Virus record (IMG/VR): IMGVR_UViG_3300025005_000009
Span: 1,515 to 65,514 of that record
Origin: a virus
Taxonomy: Duplodnaviria > Caudoviricetes
Direction: 5' to 3' (one strand)
DNA: 64,000 nucleotides
The notes under the pieces are model-generated. The model ran no database searches and had not been told where the DNA came from. It saw only the letters and a program-made list of their open reading frames with translations. Made by a program: the position numbers and the translations under genes. Positions 2,353 to 53,940 of the stretch are shown piece by piece (positions within the stretch are counted from its first letter, which is position 1; each line of letters starts with the position of its first letter).

Positions 2353-2381
2353 AGTATACTGAGTGAAAATGAGACTGTCAA
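2353..2381 (-). promoter_or_regulatory. sigma70-type promoter
   Basis: Minus strand TTGACA-17 nt-TATACT upstream of ORF starting at 2322. Confidence 0.8.
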
Positions 2382-2513: not shown

Positions 2514-2559
2514 GTATTTTTCTCTCAACGCTCAACCCCTTTATCGTCATCCCTCAGGA

Positions 2560-2751
2560 TTACTTGACAGGTCCCCTCAAAAATATTTGACTGACTTGTT
2601 CCGGTAACATCCCATATTCGCTTTTGAAGATCCGCAAGGCATGGGCTTTGTCTGCTGCCTTGACTTCCTGGTCAAACTCCATCCCCTGGAACCTGTACAC
2701 TATTAAGAACGTACCCCTTTCTCCGGTTGCGTCCCTAGACCCATCGCCCAT
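2560..2751 (-). CDS. hypothetical protein
   Basis: 63-aa ORF; true start probably internal. Confidence 0.5.
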   Translation of the reverse strand: MGDGSRDATGERGTFLIVYRFQGMEFDQEVKAADKAHALRIFKSEYGMLPEQVSQIFLRGPVK

Positions 2752-2969: not shown

Positions 2970-2996
2970 TTATCGGCCTGCTGCTGGAAAACTTGA
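2970..2996 (-). promoter_or_regulatory. sigma28 (FliA)-like promoter 1
   Basis: TCAAGTTT-N11-GCCGATAA. Confidence 0.75.
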
Positions 2997-3089
2997 CAAC
3001 CCTGCCGATGTACGTAGTTACCATTACGCAAAAACCTTGACTTCAAGGTAAGGTCGCTGCTGCTGCTGAGTCCCGTTTAGGACCTGGAA

Positions 3090-3545
3090 GTCTGTTACGC
3101 TGTAACAAAATGGGCATATACCCTGTTACAACTATATTTACTGTTTTCTCCGGGTTACTACGTAGCGTAAAAATGACACGTTACAAAGCCTGCTGTTACA
3201 CTTTTAGAAAGTCGTTTAAAATCCCCTACTTACATAGGTGAGTGTAACGGTATAGGTGTTACACCTAGGGTCAACTACTTACTGCCTTTATTTCCCTTTG
3301 GAATCAAGAGGAATGCCAAGGGGACAGTAGGGACAGTAGGGAAGTTGAGCCATAATTACATAGAAATTATTTCTGTTTGTAACACCGTTACACGATTTTT
3401 ACAAATGAAAATATGACACTCTTAAATATTTAATATGTCTATATGCGTAACAGTGTTACAAAGTAACAAACTACTATAGGCAAAATGGCGCAAGCTTCGG
3501 ACCCTGTTTTAACACCCGGTTAAAGAGGTCAAGGTTACCCGGTAA
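3090..3545. repeat. cluster of GTAAC/GTTAC short inverted repeats (iteron-like)
   Basis: About a dozen or more copies, often as palindromic pairs, e.g. TGTTACGCTGTAACA, TGTAACACCGTTACA, GTAACAGTGTTAC. Confidence 0.65.
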
Positions 3546-3634
3546 ATTTCTACAAACTTGTCGAAGTGATAGACTGCAGCAACCAAGGATAGTAGGAAAT
3601 AGGTATACAATACAATTTTGGCTAATTTTAACAT
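3509..3634 (-). CDS. 41-aa membrane peptide (below ORF-track cutoff)
   Basis: MLKLAKIVLYTYFLLSLVAAVYHFDKFVEIYRVTLTSLTGC; GGAAAGGA SD; one hydrophobic helix. Confidence 0.5.
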   Translation of the reverse strand: MLKLAKIVLYTYFLLSLVAAVYHFDKFVEIYRVTLTSLTGC

Positions 3635-4336
3635 GGTGACGATTCCTTTCCAGTAAAAATTTAAACGGTAGTGTTTCAAATTTTAAAAATTTTCCGTCTC
3701 TGCTGCTGAGTACCTTAGGCTTGCATACCTGCTGCTGCAGGGAAGTTATGCAAGTCTGCTGCTGCAGATATCCCGGTACGTTGATCTTACATAAATTACA
3801 TTAGTAAAAATTCCTTACATGAAAGTTCTTAGTGAGAAACCTTTACCTTAAACTCCCTAATGAAAATGATCTAGTGTGAAATACTTAACCCATATAATTT
3901 CTCCTTTCTTTTCAGTAGGTAATACATTTGACCCTTAATTTCACTGTAAAGGCCTATTCCTTGAGACTTCCCTATAACCCTTGCCTTGATACCTGTTTCC
4001 TGTTTCTCATGCCTTAAAACCTATCCTTGTTGAGAATTTCCGGGTTCAATCCCCGACATACTGCAGACCTTTACACTGTACACAACCAAGGAAATACCTA
4101 GTCAATTTCATCTAAGTATTTTTCATTGTGTGCAAACTGGTCTACAAGGTCCCTTTCCTTTACGTGATTATACTTATCCCATTTTTCGTGTTTGTCTGGT
4201 CTTTTTTGGTAAAGCGTACCTATCCCTCTTGATAGGCTTGACTGACTACCTTTTTACCCTTGTAGCATCGTATCAGGGAAAGGAAAGCAAACCCTATTTA
4301 TTTCCTTTTGGTCTTTTGTCATGGTCAACCCTTTCC

Positions 4337-4591
4337 TTAGTCAATCGCATAAATTTTATAAGCTTCGCATTCTCTGAGAATTTGATAATTTAAATGGATG
4401 TTTCCTTTTCCCTTGTCCACTACAATATAAATTTTTCCGGTTTCCTGAAGTCCACACCTTACGCGTATTAATTCCTCTTCAATCCTTGCTTTGTAGTTCG
4501 GTATCCCTTCAATGTTTTCTATCAATACACTCCCACGTAACAGACCTTTTCCCTTGAGATACTTTTTCCCTTTGCTTAGTGTTTCCTTCAT
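4337..4591 (-). CDS. hypothetical basic protein
   Basis: 84-aa ORF, ATGA overlap with upstream gene stop. Confidence 0.6.
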   Translation of the reverse strand: MKETLSKGKKYLKGKGLLRGSVLIENIEGIPNYKARIEEELIRVRCGLQETGKIYIVVDKGKGNIHLNYQILRECEAYKIYAID

Positions 4592-5421
4592 TGTGCAACC
4601 CTTTCAATCTGGACAAGGAAAGTTGATTGAATAACCTTTCTCTGCCGATGCCCTTTGACTCTCAAGCCCACAATGTAACCCTTTCTATCCTTAAACCTAA
4701 GGTCTGTTAGATCCCCGTCTAATACCGGTTTCCCCATGAATTTTTTCGGTAAAGCTTTTCCCTTGCCTATCCCTGCAAAAGGTACCGCAATATTAATGCC
4801 TCTTGCTCCTATAACTTCGCATGACTCTTGATTATTGCCAGACCATGAAAAGGTAACATCATAATTTTTTATTTCATGGGATTCTAAGGCAATTATCGGG
4901 TTTTTTGTATAGTCATAAAATTGAAGCTTAGGAAACCATGCGAAAATGTTTTGACCTTGATACTTGAGTTTTGACCATCGTATATCAGAGGTACCATTCA
5001 GGCGAATACATAAAGTCAAATTCAATTTTGTAGCAAGCTTTTCATAAGAAACAATTTCTTGCATCATGCAGTAAAGAAAATTTACCCTGTCCGATAAAAA
5101 TCTATCGGTTTTCTTTATCCTTGCCTTTTTGACACTTGGTAATACATCGGACAATCCGCTAGAATTCAAACAATAATCCCTACACTCTGCAGAGGAAAAC
5201 GGGCAAAGGTCTACACCTTGTGAATTCAACGTGCTAGGCGATAAATGGAGAATGAGTGTCAAGTATCCTTTCTTTTCTCCCTTAAGTGTTTTCGTGTTTC
5301 CCCGTGAAAAGATACCATGTCTTTTTGGTTGTATCTCCATTAAGGTTTTTTCCTTTCTACCTCTGAGAAAATACATTCCTTCAATGTTCCACCTTTTGTA
5401 TACATATACATAATTTCCCAC
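4588..5421 (-). CDS. GP88-family phage protein (Cys-triad, putative Fe-S)
   Basis: CPFSSAECRDYC, RLNGTSDI, FYDYTK, DGDLTDLRF motifs; true start may be internal. Confidence 0.7.
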   Translation of the reverse strand: MGNYVYVYKRWNIEGMYFLRGRKEKTLMEIQPKRHGIFSRGNTKTLKGEKKGYLTLILHLSPSTLNSQGVDLCPFSSAECRDYCLNSSGLSDVLPSVKKARIKKTDRFLSDRVNFLYCMMQEIVSYEKLATKLNLTLCIRLNGTSDIRWSKLKYQGQNIFAWFPKLQFYDYTKNPIIALESHEIKNYDVTFSWSGNNQESCEVIGARGINIAVPFAGIGKGKALPKKFMGKPVLDGDLTDLRFKDRKGYIVGLRVKGHRQRKVIQSTFLVQIERVAQ

Positions 5422-5549
5422 TTTGTACCCTGATCTTCATAGAAGATATTTAGACCATTAAACAGATCTAGCATTCTGTTTCTAAAATCTGTTTCACTCT
5501 CATTTGAAGTCCTGGATTTTACCACTCTTGAATATTTCTTTTTTATCAT
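5340..5549 (-). CDS. hypothetical protein
   Basis: 69-aa ORF, translationally coupled to upstream ORF. Confidence 0.5.
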   Translation of the reverse strand: MIKKKYSRVVKSRTSNESETDFRNRMLDLFNGLNIFYEDQGTKWEIMYMYTKGGTLKECIFSEVERKKP

Positions 5550-5758
5550 TCTCCGGTTGTCCCTTCATATGACAAGGTGATTTTATATCTCAGTAGATTT
5601 TTTGTCAGATCATACACATTAAATTTTTTCTTGATATTATCCATTACAATCCAGTTTCTTTTCATTCTTGAAGGTCTGATAAAGTCAAGCTTTAAGAGTA
5701 CCTTATTATCGGTTTCCACTTTAAAACAGTAGTGAAATTTGATTGATTTTTTCCTCAT
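5546..5758 (-). CDS. hypothetical basic protein
   Basis: 70-aa ORF with GGGG SD. Confidence 0.55.
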   Translation of the reverse strand: MRKKSIKFHYCFKVETDNKVLLKLDFIRPSRMKRNWIVMDNIKKKFNVYDLTKNLLRYKITLSYEGTTGE

Positions 5759-5767
5759 ATCATCCCC

Positions 5768-5908
5768 TTACTTGTATAAAGAATCATACCCTGATCGACC
5801 ATAGCCTTTATCTGGATTTTCAGGCGATGGCCATTTCATAACCTTGACTTTTTCAATTTCTCCATTTGACTTTTTTATTTCTTTGACTTCGTAGTTTTGT
5901 TTTTCCAT
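5768..5908 (-). CDS. 46-aa hypothetical protein
   Basis: Own translation MEKQNYEVKEIKKSNGEIEKVKVMKWPSPENPDKGYGRSGYDSLYK; GGAG SD; downstream of promoter 2. Confidence 0.5.
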   Translation of the reverse strand: MEKQNYEVKEIKKSNGEIEKVKVMKWPSPENPDKGYGRSGYDSLYK

Positions 5909-5951
5909 TGTAGTTTCTCCCTTGTGTGAGTGGTTGCCTTTCATGTTTATA

Positions 5952-5978
5952 TTATTGGCATGTTTCCATTTTACTTGA
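5952..5978 (-). promoter_or_regulatory. sigma28-like promoter 2
   Basis: TCAAGTAA-N11-GCCAATAA. Confidence 0.65.
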
Positions 5979-6297
5979 CAAAGGGAAAGGGTAAAATTGA
6001 ATTGATTCTTTTTTGAATGATTTTTTCAACGTCTGAGTAAGTATAACTCGGATCACCATAACAAGGAAACTCAAGAATGCTATGGTGGAATCGGTCAATC
6101 CTTTCTCCGGTTGAAAATTTCTCATGATAAAACCCGTTTTTATTGTAGTGAGCAATGAACCCGAACATCATAGAAAGTCTTACGTAGAACCACTTATAGA
6201 AAAGTGTTTCTTTACATCCTGACTTGATGAACCTTTCAAAGTGCTTTAAGAATTTTTCTTTATCTTCTACGGTACTCCATTGCGTAGCAGTTAACAT
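5971..6297 (-). CDS. hypothetical phage protein
   Basis: 108-aa ORF with aromatic-rich 'MFGFIAHYNKNGFY' motif. Confidence 0.65.
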   Translation of the reverse strand: MLTATQWSTVEDKEKFLKHFERFIKSGCKETLFYKWFYVRLSMMFGFIAHYNKNGFYHEKFSTGERIDRFHHSILEFPCYGDPSYTYSDVEKIIQKRINSILPFPFVK

Positions 6298-6470
6298 TTT
6301 TTATTTTCCTTTTCAACCTTGAGTATGTAAAATTGACTCAAGCTTTCATTGTCGTTAAAAGTATCTCGCAAGTGTTCATAACAACCGGTTCCTAGGTCTT
6401 TTGCTTCGCTTTCATTCTCTGCCTTAACAAGAAATTGAAGATTGATAATATAGTTTTTCATTTTTCCCTT

Positions 6471-6671
6471 TCACGATACTTTTTTGATCAAGTCGTTTTC
6501 CATTGTAACCGTAGCATACCACGTTCTTTTGGTATAGGGACAGGGACCAACAACCGGAAATTTTCCATTGCTCTGATACTCTGCATTGAATAGACTGGTT
6601 TCCACATAACGTAAGCTTTTTCCAATACTGTTTTTCAGGTCTTTTTTAGTTTGATAACTTGCCCCCATCAT
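6471..6671 (-). CDS. conserved small phage protein
   Basis: 'YQTKKDLKNSIGKSLRYVETSLF...RTWYATVTM' resembles a widespread early phage protein of unknown function. Confidence 0.65.
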   Translation of the reverse strand: MMGASYQTKKDLKNSIGKSLRYVETSLFNAEYQSNGKFPVVGPCPYTKRTWYATVTMENDLIKKVS

Positions 6672-6982
6672 AGCGTTATATCCTTTCTTGATAAGTGATT
6701 AGATAGGCACTGCATTCAAAATAAGATCCCTCAAAAACCTTTTCCCCTGTACGCGTATCGACTACTTTATGGTTTGCTTCAAGGTCTGATATCAGGGAAA
6801 ATTTAAACCTTCGTTTAATGTACATTTTTTCCTATCTCCATTGCCCGTTGATAAGAATCAAACCTTTTGCTTTTCCTTGTCGGAGATTGATTGCTAACCG
6901 GATCAAGAAAACTGCTTTGTCAAGGTTTGAATAATCCATTTTCATTTCTCCCTTTTTGTTTATCCCCTCTTGCATACTTATA

Positions 6983-7009
6983 TTATCGGCAAGCTTAGAA
7001 AAACCTTGA
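6983..7009 (-). promoter_or_regulatory. sigma28-like promoter 3
   Basis: TCAAGGTT-N11-GCCGATAA. Confidence 0.75.
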
Positions 7010-7573
7010 GTATTCTTTTTTCTTTCTTTTTTGAAATTTTCTAGCCCATGCCTTTGACAATTCTTGAGAAGATCCTACGATATCAGTCAATATCAAATTT
7101 CCCTTATTATCTACCATTACGTTACGCTTGCAGAGGTCAAGGAAAATATCATCGGTGTAGTTTGCCATCATGTCTATAAGGGTTTTCAAGCTTTCCTTGA
7201 GGTCTTCTGATAAGTCTTCACTCTTTTCAATGGCATTGATACAGGTAGGGAAACAGTCATATTTTCTCAGACTGAGATACTTAAGGGTTTTTTCTACTGC
7301 TTTGTAATCTTCCCATGCCCTGGAATGTTTTTTCATGAGTTTTTGATATAAGGGCATCTTATACGCTTGATATTCGCCGATATCACTCAATCTTTCCATT
7401 TTTGGGATATGTTTTTCCCCTTGGCAAAATGCCCCCATACACTCCTTCGCATTGTCGTTAGTCAGTATTATAACTTCAGTTTCCGATACCTTGAAGACTT
7501 TAGAAAATAATCCCTGTCCAATCTGGTTTTTCTTGTCAAGTCTTATATGGTCTTCTACTGTCCAGTATGGCAT
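6995..7573 (-). CDS. protein kinase-like, T7 gp0.7 catalytic-domain-like
   Basis: Gly loop IGQGLFSKVF, catalytic loop DLCKRNVM, metal-binding LTDIV. Confidence 0.6.
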   Translation of the reverse strand: MPYWTVEDHIRLDKKNQIGQGLFSKVFKVSETEVIILTNDNAKECMGAFCQGEKHIPKMERLSDIGEYQAYKMPLYQKLMKKHSRAWEDYKAVEKTLKYLSLRKYDCFPTCINAIEKSEDLSEDLKESLKTLIDMMANYTDDIFLDLCKRNVMVDNKGNLILTDIVGSSQELSKAWARKFQKRKKKEYSRFF

Positions 7574-7603
7574 GGTGTTTTTCTCCTTTCCTTGTTGCGT
7601 ATA

Positions 7604-7630
7604 TTATCGGCAGTCAACCGGATAACTTGA
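7604..7630 (-). promoter_or_regulatory. sigma28-like promoter 4 (upstream of kinase)
   Basis: TCAAGTTA-N11-GCCGATAA. Confidence 0.75.
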
Positions 7631-7794
7631 CTTAGTATTCAATGTTTATTGAATAATGCCCTATTACATTCCCGTTAAGGTCCCAAACCTTACCATCAAG
7701 CTTTCCTTTCTTCATAAGCTTGATAATTGATTCAACGGTTTCTATAGCAGTTTCAACCGGAGTATTTAAAAAATAATCATTCCCCATAGAAAAC

Positions 7795-8037
7795 TCAATT
7801 TTTAACATCGTTATTTTCTCCCTTCATTTCACTGTCAAATAAATAAAGCTTTGAAGAAATTTCTTGCAGGTTGACACCTTCAAAAACCCTGTATTTATGA
7901 TCGTATTTTGTGCTAGCTTGCCATCCCCTGTTATACTTTTGGATCTTCCAAACCTTACCGGCACTATATCCCACGTAATCCCCTGGATTGAAATAACTTT
8001 TGTCAATGTTCGGATAATTTCTCATTCTGTATCCCAT
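7795..8037 (-). CDS. hypothetical protein
   Basis: 80-aa ORF with AGGAG SD, first gene of leftward module. Confidence 0.6.
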   Translation of the reverse strand: MGYRMRNYPNIDKSYFNPGDYVGYSAGKVWKIQKYNRGWQASTKYDHKYRVFEGVNLQEISSKLYLFDSEMKGENNDVKN

Positions 8038-8075
8038 GGTGTTTTTCTCCTTTTGTTTTTTCCTTGTTGTTTATC

Positions 8076-8102
8076 TTATCGGTATCCTACGGAAAACCTT
8101 GA
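8076..8102 (-). promoter_or_regulatory. sigma28-like promoter 5
   Basis: TCAAGGTT-N11-ACCGATAA; overlapped by minus-strand TTGACA-17-TAGGAT (8084-8112). Confidence 0.7.
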
Positions 8103-8895
8103 CAGGTGTCAAGAGTTATTTTTAAATTATTTTTTCCTTGACCTTTAATAATGATAGCAAGAATCGTGCCTATGGTGCGCGCCTTCCTACTGCAGCGAAT
8201 TTGCAAAACAACCTTACTGTCTTCTACTTACGTATTTCATACTACATACTTCATACTACGTATTTCCCTATTACATATAACTACATACGCCATAATTTCA
8301 TAACGAGTCTTCGCTTGCAAGTCCTGTGCCTATCTTCCCATGCAAGACTTATGCCCGGTTCTAACCTACTGTCTTCTACTTACATAATCTTCCCTACGTA
8401 TTTACCCTATCTACTTAAGTAGTTTACTCTATGAGCGTTTCCGCTCTATGCAACAACTATACCATGTGGTAATTTCGTGTAACATGTAACAACGTGATGC
8501 AAGTACACAACAGTAGGTGCGGTATCGCTCAGTGTCGATTATCCTTACTGGCGTTTACTGGCATGAATAGTGCATTAGAATAACAACGTACACTAACTTA
8601 CATGATGAATATCATATAATATCATATATATCAATACATTATGACATAACGTATAATAATGGAGATCATTATTATGTAGTCGGATTATTATATAGGTGTT
8701 ATTATATAGTTTTGTATGGTAATATACACGAATACACAACATAATGTAGTAACGTGCATCAACGTACATTAACAGAGGGGAAGGGAGTGTTCAAAATTCC
8801 GACAGGTACCCCCTATCACCTATACCTGCCTCCTTGCCAAACTACCGAAAAATTAAAAGGTTTTTGTGTTTACAAGAAAGTACCTACGTGGATAC

Positions 8896-8924
8896 TTGAC
8901 TTTTCATTGTAGTAGACTTATCTT
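8896..8924 (+). promoter_or_regulatory. sigma70-type promoter for HNH gene
   Basis: TTGACT-17-TATCTT followed by TATAGG; similar copy TTGACT...TATCTATATAGG at 9652-9685. Confidence 0.55.
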
Positions 8925-8952
8925 TATAGGGTACAAAAATTAAGGAGGAAGT

Positions 8953-9405
8953 ATGGCAAGCGTATTGGAAAGATTTTTAAGAAAAGTTGTAAAAGGGGGT
9001 AATGAAGACGACTGTTGGGGTTGGACAGCATGCAAGAACGACTATGGACATGGGCTACTGTTTGCATGGGGAAGAACAGAAGGTGCCCACAGAGTATCGT
9101 ATAGGCTCTTTAACGGCCACATCCCTACTGGCGCATGTGTTAGGCACACCTGCGACAATGGGCCTTGCTCAAACCCAAAGCATTTGATATTGGGGACATC
9201 TCATCAAAATGTCCAAGACAGAGTAGAAAGAGGAAGATCAAAGGGCGCAACAAGGAAGTCCTCAGGAAATGTAGAGAAGATAACAAAAGAGCAAAAAAGA
9301 GTTATCTTTGAAGAGTTTAGACATGGTACATCGCTCTTCAGGTTAACAAAGAAATTCAACTTAACAGAGTGTGAGGTTATTGATATAGTTCACGAGACGG
9401 CGTAA
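8953..9405 (+). CDS. HNH endonuclease (HNH_3-like)
   Basis: CWGWTA...AHRVSYRLFNGHIP...VRHTCDNGPCSNPKHLILGT..N; AGGAGG SD. Confidence 0.9.
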   Translation: MASVLERFLRKVVKGGNEDDCWGWTACKNDYGHGLLFAWGRTEGAHRVSYRLFNGHIPTGACVRHTCDNGPCSNPKHLILGTSHQNVQDRVERGRSKGATRKSSGNVEKITKEQKRVIFEEFRHGTSLFRLTKKFNLTECEVIDIVHETA

Positions 9406-9792: not shown

Positions 9793-9821
9793 TTGACAAC
9801 GTCCGAACATTGTGGTATACT
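9793..9821 (+). promoter_or_regulatory. sigma70-type promoter of terminase/structural operon
   Basis: TTGACA-17-TATACT with TGn extended -10. Confidence 0.8.
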
Positions 9822-36101: not shown

Positions 36102-36968
36102 TCACTCCGGCAGTGGTATCTGTGTATAGGGCTTCTTCGGATTCGGATACTTGTCGGAGATGCTCGCTGCACCTTCGTTCGCTTGCTGCATCCAATCCGG
36201 GTTAATGACTTTAATCGGTCGATCATCCGTGAACTTCCCATTGATCATCGCATCCCTCAGCACGAACAAACTCGAAATCGCTTTCGTGATATGTGAGAGT
36301 CCAGAATCTGGATCCATATCCTCGCCTTCCCACCAGCTCATCAGATGCCTCATCGTGGCATCGTAGTAAATCGAGAAAGCCACTCCGGCGTCACGATAAT
36401 TATGTCGACCATACTTGCACCCGCCTTCCATGAGACCGAGTGCGACTTCCATCAGAACCGCACACGAGAGCACACTGAGAGGCACCTTCCGCACTCCGAC
36501 AAGATCTTTTGGATTCGTCGGTTTCCTGTTCTCCCAATACCCCATCGGATTCTCCGATCGTGCTGGAGATGAAAAGACGCGGTTGGAAACGTCGATATAC
36601 TCCGTGTTGTCGTGTGTCACGTCAATCTTAGCGTGAGGGGCCTTAGGCATCTTCGACCAGCCCATTAGACTGTATTTATTCCACACCTTAATCTCACCAT
36701 CGCTGCCAAGCTTTCCTTTGTACTCTGCCACAACAGTATTTCCACGTATCATCAAGATTTCCCACGGAGCGCCTGTCGATTTACCATGTAGAATATCCCC
36801 AGGCTGTAAGCTATCAAAGAATGCATTGTGGCGATCATACGCATCGTCCTTACTTCCCGGATCTGGCATCTTGTCAAATTCTTTGTCCAATTTCTCCTGC
36901 CTTTCTTTGTACTGCCGTGAGTGATGTTCCCACGCTTCCTTCAATTCCTCTTCACTCCAATTTGACAT
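36102..36968 (-). CDS. dATP/dGTP diphosphohydrolase domain protein (DUF5664-like) with N-terminal extension
   Basis: NPKDLVGVRKVPL, GGCKYGRHNYR, YDATMRHLMSWWEGEDMDPDSGLSH. Confidence 0.8.
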   Translation of the reverse strand: MSNWSEEELKEAWEHHSRQYKERQEKLDKEFDKMPDPGSKDDAYDRHNAFFDSLQPGDILHGKSTGAPWEILMIRGNTVVAEYKGKLGSDGEIKVWNKYSLMGWSKMPKAPHAKIDVTHDNTEYIDVSNRVFSSPARSENPMGYWENRKPTNPKDLVGVRKVPLSVLSCAVLMEVALGLMEGGCKYGRHNYRDAGVAFSIYYDATMRHLMSWWEGEDMDPDSGLSHITKAISSLFVLRDAMINGKFTDDRPIKVINPDWMQQANEGAASISDKYPNPKKPYTQIPLPE

Positions 36969-51081: not shown

Positions 51082-52687
51082 CGACTGTTTCTCCTGTGGG
51101 TTCGTCAGTGAACTTTGGTTGAAGACCTGGATAAAATTTAAACCACGCCCGTTTCACCACGCCGCCGAATCGCCCAATCTTACTCTCCCAACCACTCTGT
51201 TTCAGTAAGAGAGCTAACCGGGCCACAGGGATATTATTGATTTTCATCCCCATGAGGTATTCGCGAATTGATTTCGTGGTAATGTAGGCCACACTGCCTT
51301 TCTCTTCTTCATCCCACTTCAGATACGCACACTGTGAATCAAGCATGCGTTCATTCGCCGATCCGTTATTCACAAACTCTGCGATCATCTCAGTCATCAA
51401 CTGCAGATCCCCGGAGTCTTCTGAGACCTCAACTACCTCAGCGTTATCGATAAGACTTTTCAATTTGATCTCCCAAATATCCGGTTTGATATTTGGTGGA
51501 ACCATCATCAAGTGCTCCAAGAGATACTTCCTCAACTGTGCATAGCACAAGAGTTCTGCGGAATTGACGTTGATAATCCGGTGTGCGACTTTTAAGCCCC
51601 ATGTTACCGGGTCCGTCAGATATTTAATCAATCCATCGATGGGGATCTCAATCCTTGCGGCTTTATCCCTCAACCGCTCTTCTGCAGTTTTGATCCCGTA
51701 AAGCCTGGTCTTACAGAGTTCGGCTTCGCACACACTTTTAATTGGATCATCCTTACACTTGTACTGATAATCCTTCCTACCTACTGACTTGCTGATCGTG
51801 TCCAGTTCCTTTGCAGATAATGGCTGATCCAGGTATTTTAGATTGTACGCCTGCAGAAGATCTTTCCAAGTATCAGGTTCTGCTTTTTTAAAGTAGACGC
51901 CAACATTATACATACCGAGGTTGCGATGTCCTGGAGGTATCCCCTGCTGCTGCAGGGTTTCAAGACAAGGCGGACCTTGCTCAAATCCCACGGTTCGCAA
52001 GGCAATGGGAAGCGGTGTTTTTTCATCCCACTGTTCAACCGTACTGACAAACTCTTGAATCCCGACGAATCGACCGTCCGGTGTGACATGTTGTCCTTTA
52101 TGATCATCAGGGGAAACACCTTTTGCGAACGTATTGAAAAATGGAAGGTTAATAAAATTCCCGACAGATCCGGGTTGATCAATATCTTTCTGCTTTGGAA
52201 AGATTTCGTGACCGGCATAACCAAGCGCCACTGACCAATCAGTCATACGCTTCATCACAGGTCCGGCAGGTTTGCCCTGCCCACTGATAAACAGGAATGC
52301 ATGAGCGTCTCCAGATCGAGACACGAACACATGCAGAGGAAGTCCGAGATTTTTAATCTTCTTGACAAGAGCAAGATGATCAATTCCCTTTTGGTCAATA
52401 TCGATAGCTGCGAAATTGACATTTCCTGATGCTTGAATCGGGATGAGGCCCAGGCCAAGCACTTTGTTAAAGTGTGCGTGGAAATGGTCATCCGTCAATG
52501 GGAGAGGGGGAAGATTGCTTCCTCCCTCATCCTTCAAGAATTTTCCATCTGGTCCCCTCGCACCTTCGACCCACTGTGAATTGGTCTTGAAGTCCCGGCA
52601 TCCGTACCAGTCGGTACGTCCGTGAAACAGCTCACGAAATCTCTCCAGAGTCTTTTGATCGACTCTTTCAAGATTAGGCATCGGCAA
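51017..52687 (-). CDS. primase (AEP-like domain plus PriCT)
   Basis: AIDID, SRSGDAH, EIFPKQ, NFINLPF; GPPCLE...GHRNLGMYN PriCT motif; no P-loop. Confidence 0.8.
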   Translation of the reverse strand: MPMPNLERVDQKTLERFRELFHGRTDWYGCRDFKTNSQWVEGARGPDGKFLKDEGGSNLPPLPLTDDHFHAHFNKVLGLGLIPIQASGNVNFAAIDIDQKGIDHLALVKKIKNLGLPLHVFVSRSGDAHAFLFISGQGKPAGPVMKRMTDWSVALGYAGHEIFPKQKDIDQPGSVGNFINLPFFNTFAKGVSPDDHKGQHVTPDGRFVGIQEFVSTVEQWDEKTPLPIALRTVGFEQGPPCLETLQQQGIPPGHRNLGMYNVGVYFKKAEPDTWKDLLQAYNLKYLDQPLSAKELDTISKSVGRKDYQYKCKDDPIKSVCEAELCKTRLYGIKTAEERLRDKAARIEIPIDGLIKYLTDPVTWGLKVAHRIINVNSAELLCYAQLRKYLLEHLMMVPPNIKPDIWEIKLKSLIDNAEVVEVSEDSGDLQLMTEMIAEFVNNGSANERMLDSQCAYLKWDEEEKGSVAYITTKSIREYLMGMKINNIPVARLALLLKQSGWESKIGRFGGVVKRAWFKFYPGLQPKFTDEPTGETVDEALSRTVVEHVYDEGKDISE

Positions 52688-53456
52688 CCTCCGCAGTTCC
52701 AGTGATTTTCACTTCGGCATCTTTGAATGACTTGTGTGTCTTCCGGGTAAACGCCCGAAGCTTTTTGTCTTCTTCGGTCTTGCTGGGAATCGATCCCGCA
52801 TTGTTGACACCCCAGGCATAGAACGCTCCGGCATCGCCTTCTTTGGCTGACGCGTTCAACGTGTAGTACCCGTATTCCATCGGCATCTGTACGATATCGC
52901 CCTTGGCAGTTTTCACCTTCCGGGCTTCAATCATGTTGAGCCATTTTTTCGCAGTCCCTGTGGACGTGGACTTCATGGACACTGAAGCCAATTCCGGCAC
53001 ACCATTTTCATCAAAGACGAGAACGGCGAAATTGCGAAATTCTGTACACGCAAAACCTTTGTCATTTTTCCCGGTTCCCCACTTCGAGAATTCACAGGAT
53101 TCGCAGGAGTCAGGGGAAATCGTCCCGCCTGAGATTCCATCCGGGGATGAGCATTCAATTTTAAATTCCTTGTCGAACAAGATCCGGTTTTTCGAATACC
53201 AGACCGGAACCACCTTCACCGATTCACCATAGATCTTCCCGGTAACTGTGTTGAAAATGTCCCCTTGGCTGAGACCCTTGATGTACTTGTCGTGGCCCTT
53301 CATGACCTGTTTACTGGTCCCTGCCGCGATCTGCAAGCGAGGAACGATGTTATCTTCAGCGGTCATGTTCTCAAGTCCGGTTCCGCCTTCTTCCCCTTCG
53401 TCAAGGACCATCAATTCCGTCTCATCAGTGTTCAGCACGGTTAATTCTTTACTCAT
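52674..53456 (-). CDS. putative ssDNA-binding protein
   Basis: Position in replication module; acidic; 'IVPRLQI...GDIFNTVTG' family-like motif. Confidence 0.45.
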   Translation of the reverse strand: MSKELTVLNTDETELMVLDEGEEGGTGLENMTAEDNIVPRLQIAAGTSKQVMKGHDKYIKGLSQGDIFNTVTGKIYGESVKVVPVWYSKNRILFDKEFKIECSSPDGISGGTISPDSCESCEFSKWGTGKNDKGFACTEFRNFAVLVFDENGVPELASVSMKSTSTGTAKKWLNMIEARKVKTAKGDIVQMPMEYGYYTLNASAKEGDAGAFYAWGVNNAGSIPSKTEEDKKLRAFTRKTHKSFKDAEVKITGTAEVADA

Positions 53457-53940
53457 CAGATTCCTCCTTGGTGGTTGATTGACTCGCCCGTATCCGGGAC
53501 TTCGTGAAAATTTCTACGCTCTCTGGTAAGGCAGCACCCTCTGTCAGAAGGTCTTTGATGAGTGTCGTCAATGATTTATTATTGACGGCTTCCTTCACCA
53601 TGTCGATGACGCCATTCTCTAAGGCCCAGGCTTTAAATTCCTCCAGGTCTTTGATCGTCGTATAAATGTCATCGATCCGGGATAAGGTCCCTACTGAATC
53701 TCGCTTGATTTGCTGCGTGTTCCCGTTGGCTTCCCATCGCTTCAGAAGTACCGCTGTAGACGCGTCAAGATTGATCTGGTTATCTTTCTTCGCCGCTTCC
53801 AAGGTCTTCCGTTTCTGATCAAACTCCGAGACCATCGTCTCCAATTCGTCGGTCGTCTTGAGTTCATACTCTGAGACTTTATCGTGCAAGGCAAATTCCC
53901 GAGCTGGGTATTTTCCTCGTAGATGCGACCATTTTCCCAT
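53449..53940 (-). CDS. replication-module hypothetical protein
   Basis: Coiled coil then 'NNKSLTTLIKD...LPESVEIF'. Confidence 0.5.
   Translation of the reverse strand: MGKWSHLRGKYPAREFALHDKVSEYELKTTDELETMVSEFDQKRKTLEAAKKDNQINLDASTAVLLKRWEANGNTQQIKRDSVGTLSRIDDIYTTIKDLEEFKAWALENGVIDMVKEAVNNKSLTTLIKDLLTEGAALPESVEIFTKSRIRASQSTTKEESDE

Follow-up and report, generated by a model that had tools for sequence, protein, structure and literature searches.

Sigma-28-type promoter sites in front of a small-gene block of a tailed phage

Which sigma factor reads the promoters of a phage gene block if the sites in front of its genes resemble those of bacterial flagellar genes? The question is raised by a window of 64,000 nucleotides, i.e., bases 1515-65514 of the 65,514-bp IMG/VR virus record IMGVR_UViG_3300025005_000009 (Caudoviricetes), a linear contig with a completeness of 91% according to the CheckV estimate. 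Textbook lytic phages begin transcription on the housekeeping sigma factor of the host, and later modify or replace this factor. In the window, an AT-rich block of small genes carries five sites which, as judged from their sequence, have the full architecture of promoters for sigma-28 (FliA in enteric bacteria, also SigD or WhiG), and the assignment to this promoter class is well supported.

A preliminary description of the window had listed five minus-strand copies of TCAAGKWW-N11-RCCRATAA. An exact search for this pattern finds all five where they had been placed, while no match was obtained in any of 100 dinucleotide shuffles. The sites are listed below, together with a weaker candidate and the corresponding positions in L006, a 2.5-kb metagenome contig of the Joint Genome Institute (JGI), which is the only retrievable relative of the block (one contig from a metagenome scan).

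8076-8102, minus strand: P1, sigma-28-type promoter (TCAAGGTT-N11-ACCGATAA), 38 nt before the ATG of an 80-amino-acid (aa) gene; kept in L006 at 21-47 and 319-345
7604-7630, minus strand: P2, sigma-28-type promoter (TCAAGTTA-N11-GCCGATAA), 30 nt before a kinase-like gene; L006 orthologue at 1136-1162
6983-7009, minus strand: P3, sigma-28-type promoter (TCAAGGTT-N11-GCCGATAA), overlapping the stop codon of the kinase-like gene and 43 nt before the ATG at 6939; L006 orthologue at 1759-1785
5952-5978, minus strand: P4, sigma-28-type promoter (TCAAGTAA-N11-GCCAATAA), the weakest of the five, overlapping the stop codon of a 108-aa gene
2970-2996, minus strand: P5, sigma-28-type promoter (TCAAGTTT-N11-GCCGATAA), matching the Escherichia (E.) coli consensus at 15 of 16 positions, 33 nt before a 77-aa gene
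2541-2567, minus strand: weak sixth candidate (TCAAGTAA-N11-GACGATAA) from a matrix scan, with no open reading frame (ORF) directly behind it

Because the pattern was written after the sites had been seen, the published FliA consensus, TAAAGTTT-N11-GCCGATAA (PMC7286023), was also run as an independent query. With at most three mismatches, this consensus recovered four of the five sites (with 1, 2, 2 and 3 mismatches), compared to 0.44 expected, and no shuffle reached four. A scan of all 65,514 bp with a matrix built from the sites themselves returned only the five sites and the weaker sixth one; all six matches are found on the minus strand between window positions 2537 and 8104, i.e., within the 5.6-kb AT-rich block. 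The other GCCGATA and CCGATAA words in the genome have no upstream box, as had been described for the GCCGATA words checked in the structural arm.

The geometry of the sites is equally regular. All five window sites, the weak sixth site and all five sites of L006 share a spacer of exactly 11 nt between the two 8-mers, the fixed length of sigma-28 promoters (15 nt if counted from TAAA to GCCGATAA). The -35 element TCAAG(G/T)(T/A)(T/A), which counts as an accepted sigma-28 variant, is present at every site, and the extended -10 element in the window reads GCCGATAA in three cases and ACCGATAA and GCCAATAA in one case each. The motif is asymmetric rather than palindromic. Each of the five strong sites is co-oriented with the genes and, in agreement with the earlier statement that the sites stand a few tens of nucleotides before a Shine-Dalgarno (SD) sequence and ATG, the kinase gene included, the distance from the end of the motif to the SD-preceded ATG is 30-43 nt (38, 30, 43, 43 and 33 nt).

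Two further observations concern the DNA behind these sites. An RNA gene was considered behind the weak sixth site, where a T-loop-like GGTTCGATTCC is present, but the fold is no better than that of shuffled sequences (z -0.69) and the candidate was rejected. A CA-rich word, ACAACAAGG, is kept 7-15 nt 3' of the -10 element in several leaders of both phages, i.e., after P1 (~8050-8065) and P2 (7585-7597) and in leaders of L006, and is found again at ~2470; it may be an initial-transcribed or translation-enhancing element.

The comparison with L006 indicates which parts of the sites are maintained. This contig, whose kinase-like protein is 66% identical to that of the window, carries five copies of the motif on the coding strand, syntenic with orthologous genes, as would be sought in a related phage; GCCGATAA is found in all five, and the P1 cassette is duplicated. 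Over the orthologous pairs, identity is 90% and 93% in the two boxes, 62% in the spacer and 61-64% in the 20-nt flanks. In the two fully independent pairs, the boxes agree at 14 of 16 and 16 of 16 positions and the spacers at 4 of 11 and 3 of 11. Boxes that are kept over diverged spacers, that are asymmetric and that point into genes argue for the footprint of a promoter rather than that of an operator. Scans of IMG/VR with the kinase-like protein or with its alignment gave no further relatives of the block; two more relatives, P0003 and P0004, are 51% identical. The relatives originate from IMG 3300009504 / Ga0114946. A promoter-like match in L137 was dropped as a chance match, as it is located inside a coding region.

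Outside phages, the closest counterparts are the class 3 flagellar and chemotaxis promoters, i.e., those read by FliA of E. coli, Salmonella and Pseudomonas, by SigD of Bacillus and by WhiG of Streptomyces. Like the phage sites, these promoters are bipartite with an 11-nt spacer and GCCGATAA; they drive motility genes, whereas the phage sites precede small phage genes, with five to six of them clustered in 5.6 kb of the genome of a lytic-type phage. The preliminary description had also stated that TCAAG variants of the -35 element occur in other FliA regulons, and this holds in the species genomes: exact TCAAGGTTT-N10-GCCGATAA is found upstream of bacterial motility genes, among them fliD in a Nitrospira metagenome-assembled genome (MAG) and in a gammaproteobacterial MAG, a flagellin gene (Fibrobacteria MAG), a gene for a methyl-accepting chemotaxis protein (MCP), cheW and fliJ (Thermoleophilia MAG). 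The first ORFs behind 100 such matches encode 5 MCPs, 3 FliD proteins and several PAS, EAL, HDOD and GGDEF proteins, the latter four being typical of FliA regulons; a group of SMC proteins in the same set was put aside as a coincidence within coding sequence. A literature search for the Pseudomonas putida wording of a TCAAG consensus gave no match.

Similar clusters are also found in phages without any sequence relationship to this one. In its strict form, the motif is limited to 11 contigs of IMG/VR, two of which, G001 and G002, carry clusters on one strand. G001 (IMGVR_UViG_3300029288_000078; 182.7 kb, 36% G+C) has 9 sites in 7 kb, positioned 43-50 nt before SD and ATG, with TAAAG and TCAAG alternating within the cluster. 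In G002 (IMGVR_UViG_3300018432_000013; 112.9 kb, 63% G+C, terminal repeats) there are 5+1 sites in 4 kb, and every site follows a terminator-like hairpin. Like the sites considered here, those of both clusters (TAAAG/TCAAG-N14-RCCGATA) are confined to one strand and precede the SD and ATG of small genes, at a distance of ~35-50 nt. A difference is that G001 encodes a 99-aa protein (L142, G001:C1:130711-130935, minus strand) that consists of FliA region 4 only (TIGR02479, E 7e-8; Sigma70_r4, 26 bits), for which this phage has no counterpart. This protein could be a partial sigma factor or a decoy for the anti-sigma factor FlgM. For G002, a Sigma70_r2 match of low score (17.5 bits) was rejected after a Pfam search with the ORF gave no confirmation. 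The promoters of G001 are followed by AACAACTAACAA leaders, which resemble the CA-rich word ACAACAAGG.

The housekeeping alternative is considered next; sigma-70 promoters are also found in this genome. Those near the block, and a palindrome that overlaps one of them, are as follows.

9793-9821, plus strand: sigma-70 consensus promoter TTGACA-17-TGgTATACT, directed towards the packaging and structural arm
2353-2381, minus strand: sigma-70 consensus promoter TTGACA-17-TATACT, where the replication and nucleotide-metabolism arm, which is of higher GC, begins
8084-8112, minus strand: sigma-70-type promoter TTGACA-17-TAGGAT overlapping P1, with 10 of 12 matches; the -10 element is TATGAT in L006
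8097-8114, no strand: palindrome CTTGACA-nn-TGTCAAG with T-runs beyond it on both strands; arms kept and loop changed in L006

The first of these is the plain sigma-70 promoter that the preliminary description had assigned to the structural operon, and it is present as described. Together with the second it frames the small-gene block, both promoters facing outwards (2381-2353 on the minus strand, 9793-9821 on the plus strand). Both belong to a family of four TTGACA-N17-TATACT promoters with identical hexamers (45545, 57762 (minus), 2381 (minus) and 9793 (plus)), two of which are located inside the replication arm. On the basis of this family, the phage uses two promoter classes, of which the sigma-28 one is found only in the AT-rich block.

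P1 is a special case. Its TTGACA box is found 4 nt upstream of TCAAG, and the palindrome holds the sigma-70 -35 box in one arm and the sigma-28 -35 box in the other; because of the T-runs beyond these arms, P1 sits in a terminator-like hairpin. Owing to the overlapping sigma-70 promoter, the block is not wholly dependent on sigma-28. At the sites other than this overlapping one, the elements of a housekeeping promoter (a TTGACA-like -35 box, a spacing of 16-18 nt and a TATAAT-like -10 box with A at -11 and T at -7) are not found together. A TTGACA-like box is absent from four of the five window sites, and taking GATAAT as the -10 element would place GTCAAG or TCAAGG (two of six matches) at the -35 position. 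GATAAG or GATAAA is found in four of nine distinct sites, so that the T required by sigma-70 at -7 is missing from them. The invariant GCC is without a role in sigma-70 recognition. A sigma-70 reading fits the sites badly.

With respect to the factor itself, the preliminary description had named the host flagellar sigma factor or a phage-encoded one from outside the window. A sigma-28-type reader is in line with the promoter class, while no sigma gene is present in the remaining 1.5 kb of the contig. When the whole contig was searched in all six frames (E<=10), no match was found to the Sigma70_r2, r4, r4_2, FliA_WhiG and ECF models (PF04542, PF04545, PF08281, TIGR02479 and TIGR02937), to FlgM or to AsiA (PF09010; MotA was not separately searched). 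Pfam and PHROG scans of 40 ORFs revealed no sigma gene, and in such scans the block proteins matched no recognisable DNA-binding family. The phage also has no relative of the mini-sigma of G001.

Taken together, the sigma-28 boxes and spacer, the occurrence of TCAAG at flagellar genes, the poor sigma-70 fit and the lack of a phage sigma make the host sigma-28 holoenzyme the best reading, and our judgement leans, though only slightly, towards the sites being read by host RNA polymerase with the host's own sigma-28-family factor. Region 4 of this factor would bind TCAAG(G/T)TT, while the extended -10 element (G/A)CCGATAA would be recognised by its regions 2.4 and 3. Transcription would start ~6-9 nt downstream, resulting in leaders of ~22-36 nt with a strong SD. 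The first unit could be fired by either holoenzyme, by means of the sigma-70 promoter that overlaps P1, and the two long arms would be transcribed from the TTGACA-N17-TATACT promoters. Since only the first unit and the long arms have sigma-70 promoters, most expression from the block would track free sigma-28 in the infected cell. We infer the identity of the reading sigma factor, the start sites, the early timing and the link to motility; a coupling to motility, or adsorption by way of the flagellum, would be pure speculation.

Several points weigh against the host factor. An alignment of the portal found no relative among 185,579 species genomes, and the host may lack FliA or may have no free FliA at the time of infection. 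GATAAT, a fair sigma-70 -10 element, is found in three of the five window sites, and the consensus sigma-70 promoters before both long arms would blur the temporal logic. Furthermore, since the contig is linear and 91% complete, a phage sigma could be encoded in the part not covered or be delivered with the virion, and the unrelated jumbo phage G001, with nine sites in the same type of cluster, does encode a protein composed of FliA region 4 only. These last two points also speak for a phage-supplied sigma-28-type factor, full-length or cut down, originating from the missing ~9% of the genome or from the virion. We nevertheless consider such a factor unlikely: the five models detect no sigma-like frame in 65.5 kb at E<=10 and there is no relative of the G001 protein, a reader of the FliA consensus should be sufficiently FliA-like to be detected, and the genes that head the programme need a factor that is already inside the cell.

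An arrangement as in T4 MotA/AsiA, where the sigma-70 holoenzyme would use GATAAT as the -10 element and the TCAAG box would bind a phage activator from the first unit, appears quite improbable. GATAAT is found in three of the five L006 sites as well as in three of those in the window, and the sigma-70 promoter at P1 (TTGACA-17-TAGGAT or TATGAT), which is kept in both phages, could supply an early activator. However, in addition to the T at -7 that is missing from four of nine distinct sites and the GCC before GATAA that has no sigma-70 role, the TG misses the extended -10 register by one base and the PF09010 search found no AsiA homologue. It would also be a remarkable accident if a 16-base bipartite consensus with an exact 11-nt spacer coincided with that of FliA. 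That the repeats are not promoters at all, but repressor operators or terminator/recombination cassettes spread by duplication, we regard as very improbable: the P1 -35 box is an arm of a terminator-like hairpin, a similar hairpin at 3034-3049 contains TCAAGGTTTTT and the P1 cassette is duplicated in L006, but the motif is asymmetric, always co-oriented with genes at a fixed promoter-like distance to SD and ATG, kept in both boxes across diverged spacers and identical to the promoter class used at flagellar genes.

The host sigma-28 holoenzyme would thus serve a block of ~16 small genes in 5.6 kb of AT-rich DNA (37% G+C, compared to 48% elsewhere in the genome), which the sites divide into five putative transcription units.

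7795-8037, minus strand: 80-aa first gene, with three paralogous or orthologous copies in L006
7632-7808, minus strand: 58-aa gene
6995-7573, minus strand: mini protein kinase-like gene of the T7 gp0.7 type, 192 aa, behind P2
5971-6939, minus strand: P3 unit, five small genes of ~35, 49, 66, 56 and 108 aa, in the same order in L006
4337-5908, minus strand: P4 unit, genes of 46, 70, 69, 250 (GP88 family, PF17338) and 84 aa
2997-4336, minus strand: 1.3-kb stretch without a convincing ORF, 3' of the P4 unit and before P5
2703-2936, minus strand: 77-aa gene of the P5 unit

The 192-aa protein matches phrog_15752 (E 6e-9), the family in PHROG that represents T7 gp0.7, a kinase and inhibitor of host transcription, as well as phrog_11084 (E 2e-19), and gives a weak match to Pkinase. 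In its alignment, the Gly-loop, D146, N151 and D164 are invariant, the latter three resembling the D, N and D of a catalytic loop. Its AlphaFold model is poor (pLDDT 61), and Foldseek found nothing below E 0.2, although many of the weak rows are kinase-fold proteins; there was no sequence match in the PDB. The preliminary description had referred to the block as early, host-takeover genes. This label is an analogy drawn from the small size of the genes, the T7 gp0.7-like kinase and the position between the arms, with the kinase-like gene as its one direct support.

The stretch at 2997-4336 contains repeated CTGCTGCTG(AG) words and many GTAACA/TGTTAC words, and ends at the leftward terminator-like hairpin 3034-3049, the 3' arm of which is TCAAGGTTTTT. 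It matches no Rfam family; a long untranslated RNA, an origin and an array of protein-binding sites are all conceivable.

Host-takeover modules in which numerous early promoters stand close together are known from the terminal redundancy of SPO1 and from the class I genes of T7 (A1-A3, gp0.7 kinase). The block resembles these modules in that many AT-rich small genes head one arm, with several promoters, strong as judged from their sequence, a few hundred bases apart and a gp0.7-like kinase. The SPO1 and T7 modules use the housekeeping sigma factor (sigma-70 or sigma-A), whereas in the present block only the first promoter has such a signal. A literature search found no report of early genes of a lytic phage under sigma-28 promoters. 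The flxA gene of the defective Qin prophage is FliA-dependent and, like the genes of the block, phage-borne behind a FliA-type promoter; it is, however, a single gene in a defective prophage, while the sites in this phage organise a whole gene block. The flxA gene of the E. coli Qin prophage is mentioned in the study that provides a FliA motif from chromatin immunoprecipitation sequencing (PMC4183435).

The genome is arranged in two gene arms. The plus-strand arm, from ~9975 to 35100, contains genes for a terminase that has a Walker A motif and for the portal, along with long structural genes. The minus-strand arm extends from 8037 leftwards past base 1 and then, on a permuted map, from 64000 down to 35152; it encodes a family A DNA polymerase, an archaeo-eukaryotic primase (AEP), SNF2 and UvrD helicases, a class II ribonucleotide reductase (RNR), ThyX, a dCTP deaminase, a Nampt/Prs pair, an RNA ligase and a MazZ-like domain. 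No cultured relative was found by blastn of the block, and in tblastn the DNA polymerase and the portal reached <=28% identity, i.e., no close cultured phage. The MazZ-type dATP/dGTP diphosphohydrolase domain (PF18909, E 8e-23) is N-terminal in the protein encoded at 36102-36968 (minus strand), and raised the idea of a genome with 2-aminoadenine (a Z-genome). This idea was dropped because the genome search revealed neither PurZ nor an adenylosuccinate synthetase, so that the phage DNA is probably without this base.

A few observations on the neighbouring DNA are included here. A 0.8-kb non-coding region at 8150-8950, between the small-gene block and a gene for an HNH endonuclease, has direct repeats (TACTGTCTTCTACTTAC... 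and TACGTATTT...) and a very AT-rich core at 8600-8720, and is possibly an origin or packaging region. The HNH endonuclease gene (8953-9405, plus strand; phrog_1872, E 1e-29) stands alone just 5' of the terminase region, which is the arrangement found in HNH-assisted packaging systems. An adjacent gene pair at 52674-53940 (minus strand) matches the families of gp34 (PF23977, E 4e-34) and gp33 (PF23984, E 2e-9) of cyanophage Pam3.

For the biology of phages, the sites suggest a strategy that we put forward tentatively and regard, as a whole, as possible and rather doubtful. A lytic phage would tie most of its host-takeover genes to the flagellar sigma factor of the host, leaving the first unit open also to sigma-70, and a product of this first unit may raise the level of free sigma-28, e.g., by countering FlgM, with boosting or gating in motile cells as the outcome. 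Such a strategy would be general, recurrent across unrelated lineages and previously undescribed, and some of these lineages would add a protein composed of sigma region 4 only. The dependence on FliA is directly testable in vitro without cultivation of the phage, and the promoter set, which from its sequence is expected to be strong, compact and orthogonal to sigma-70, may be of practical use. If the proposal is true, infection would be tied to the state of the host, i.e., to motility and to the FliA that is free after completion of the hook; the phage would have a transcription channel that outlasts any sigma-70 shut-off; and the sigma-28-like fragments encoded by some large phages would be explained.

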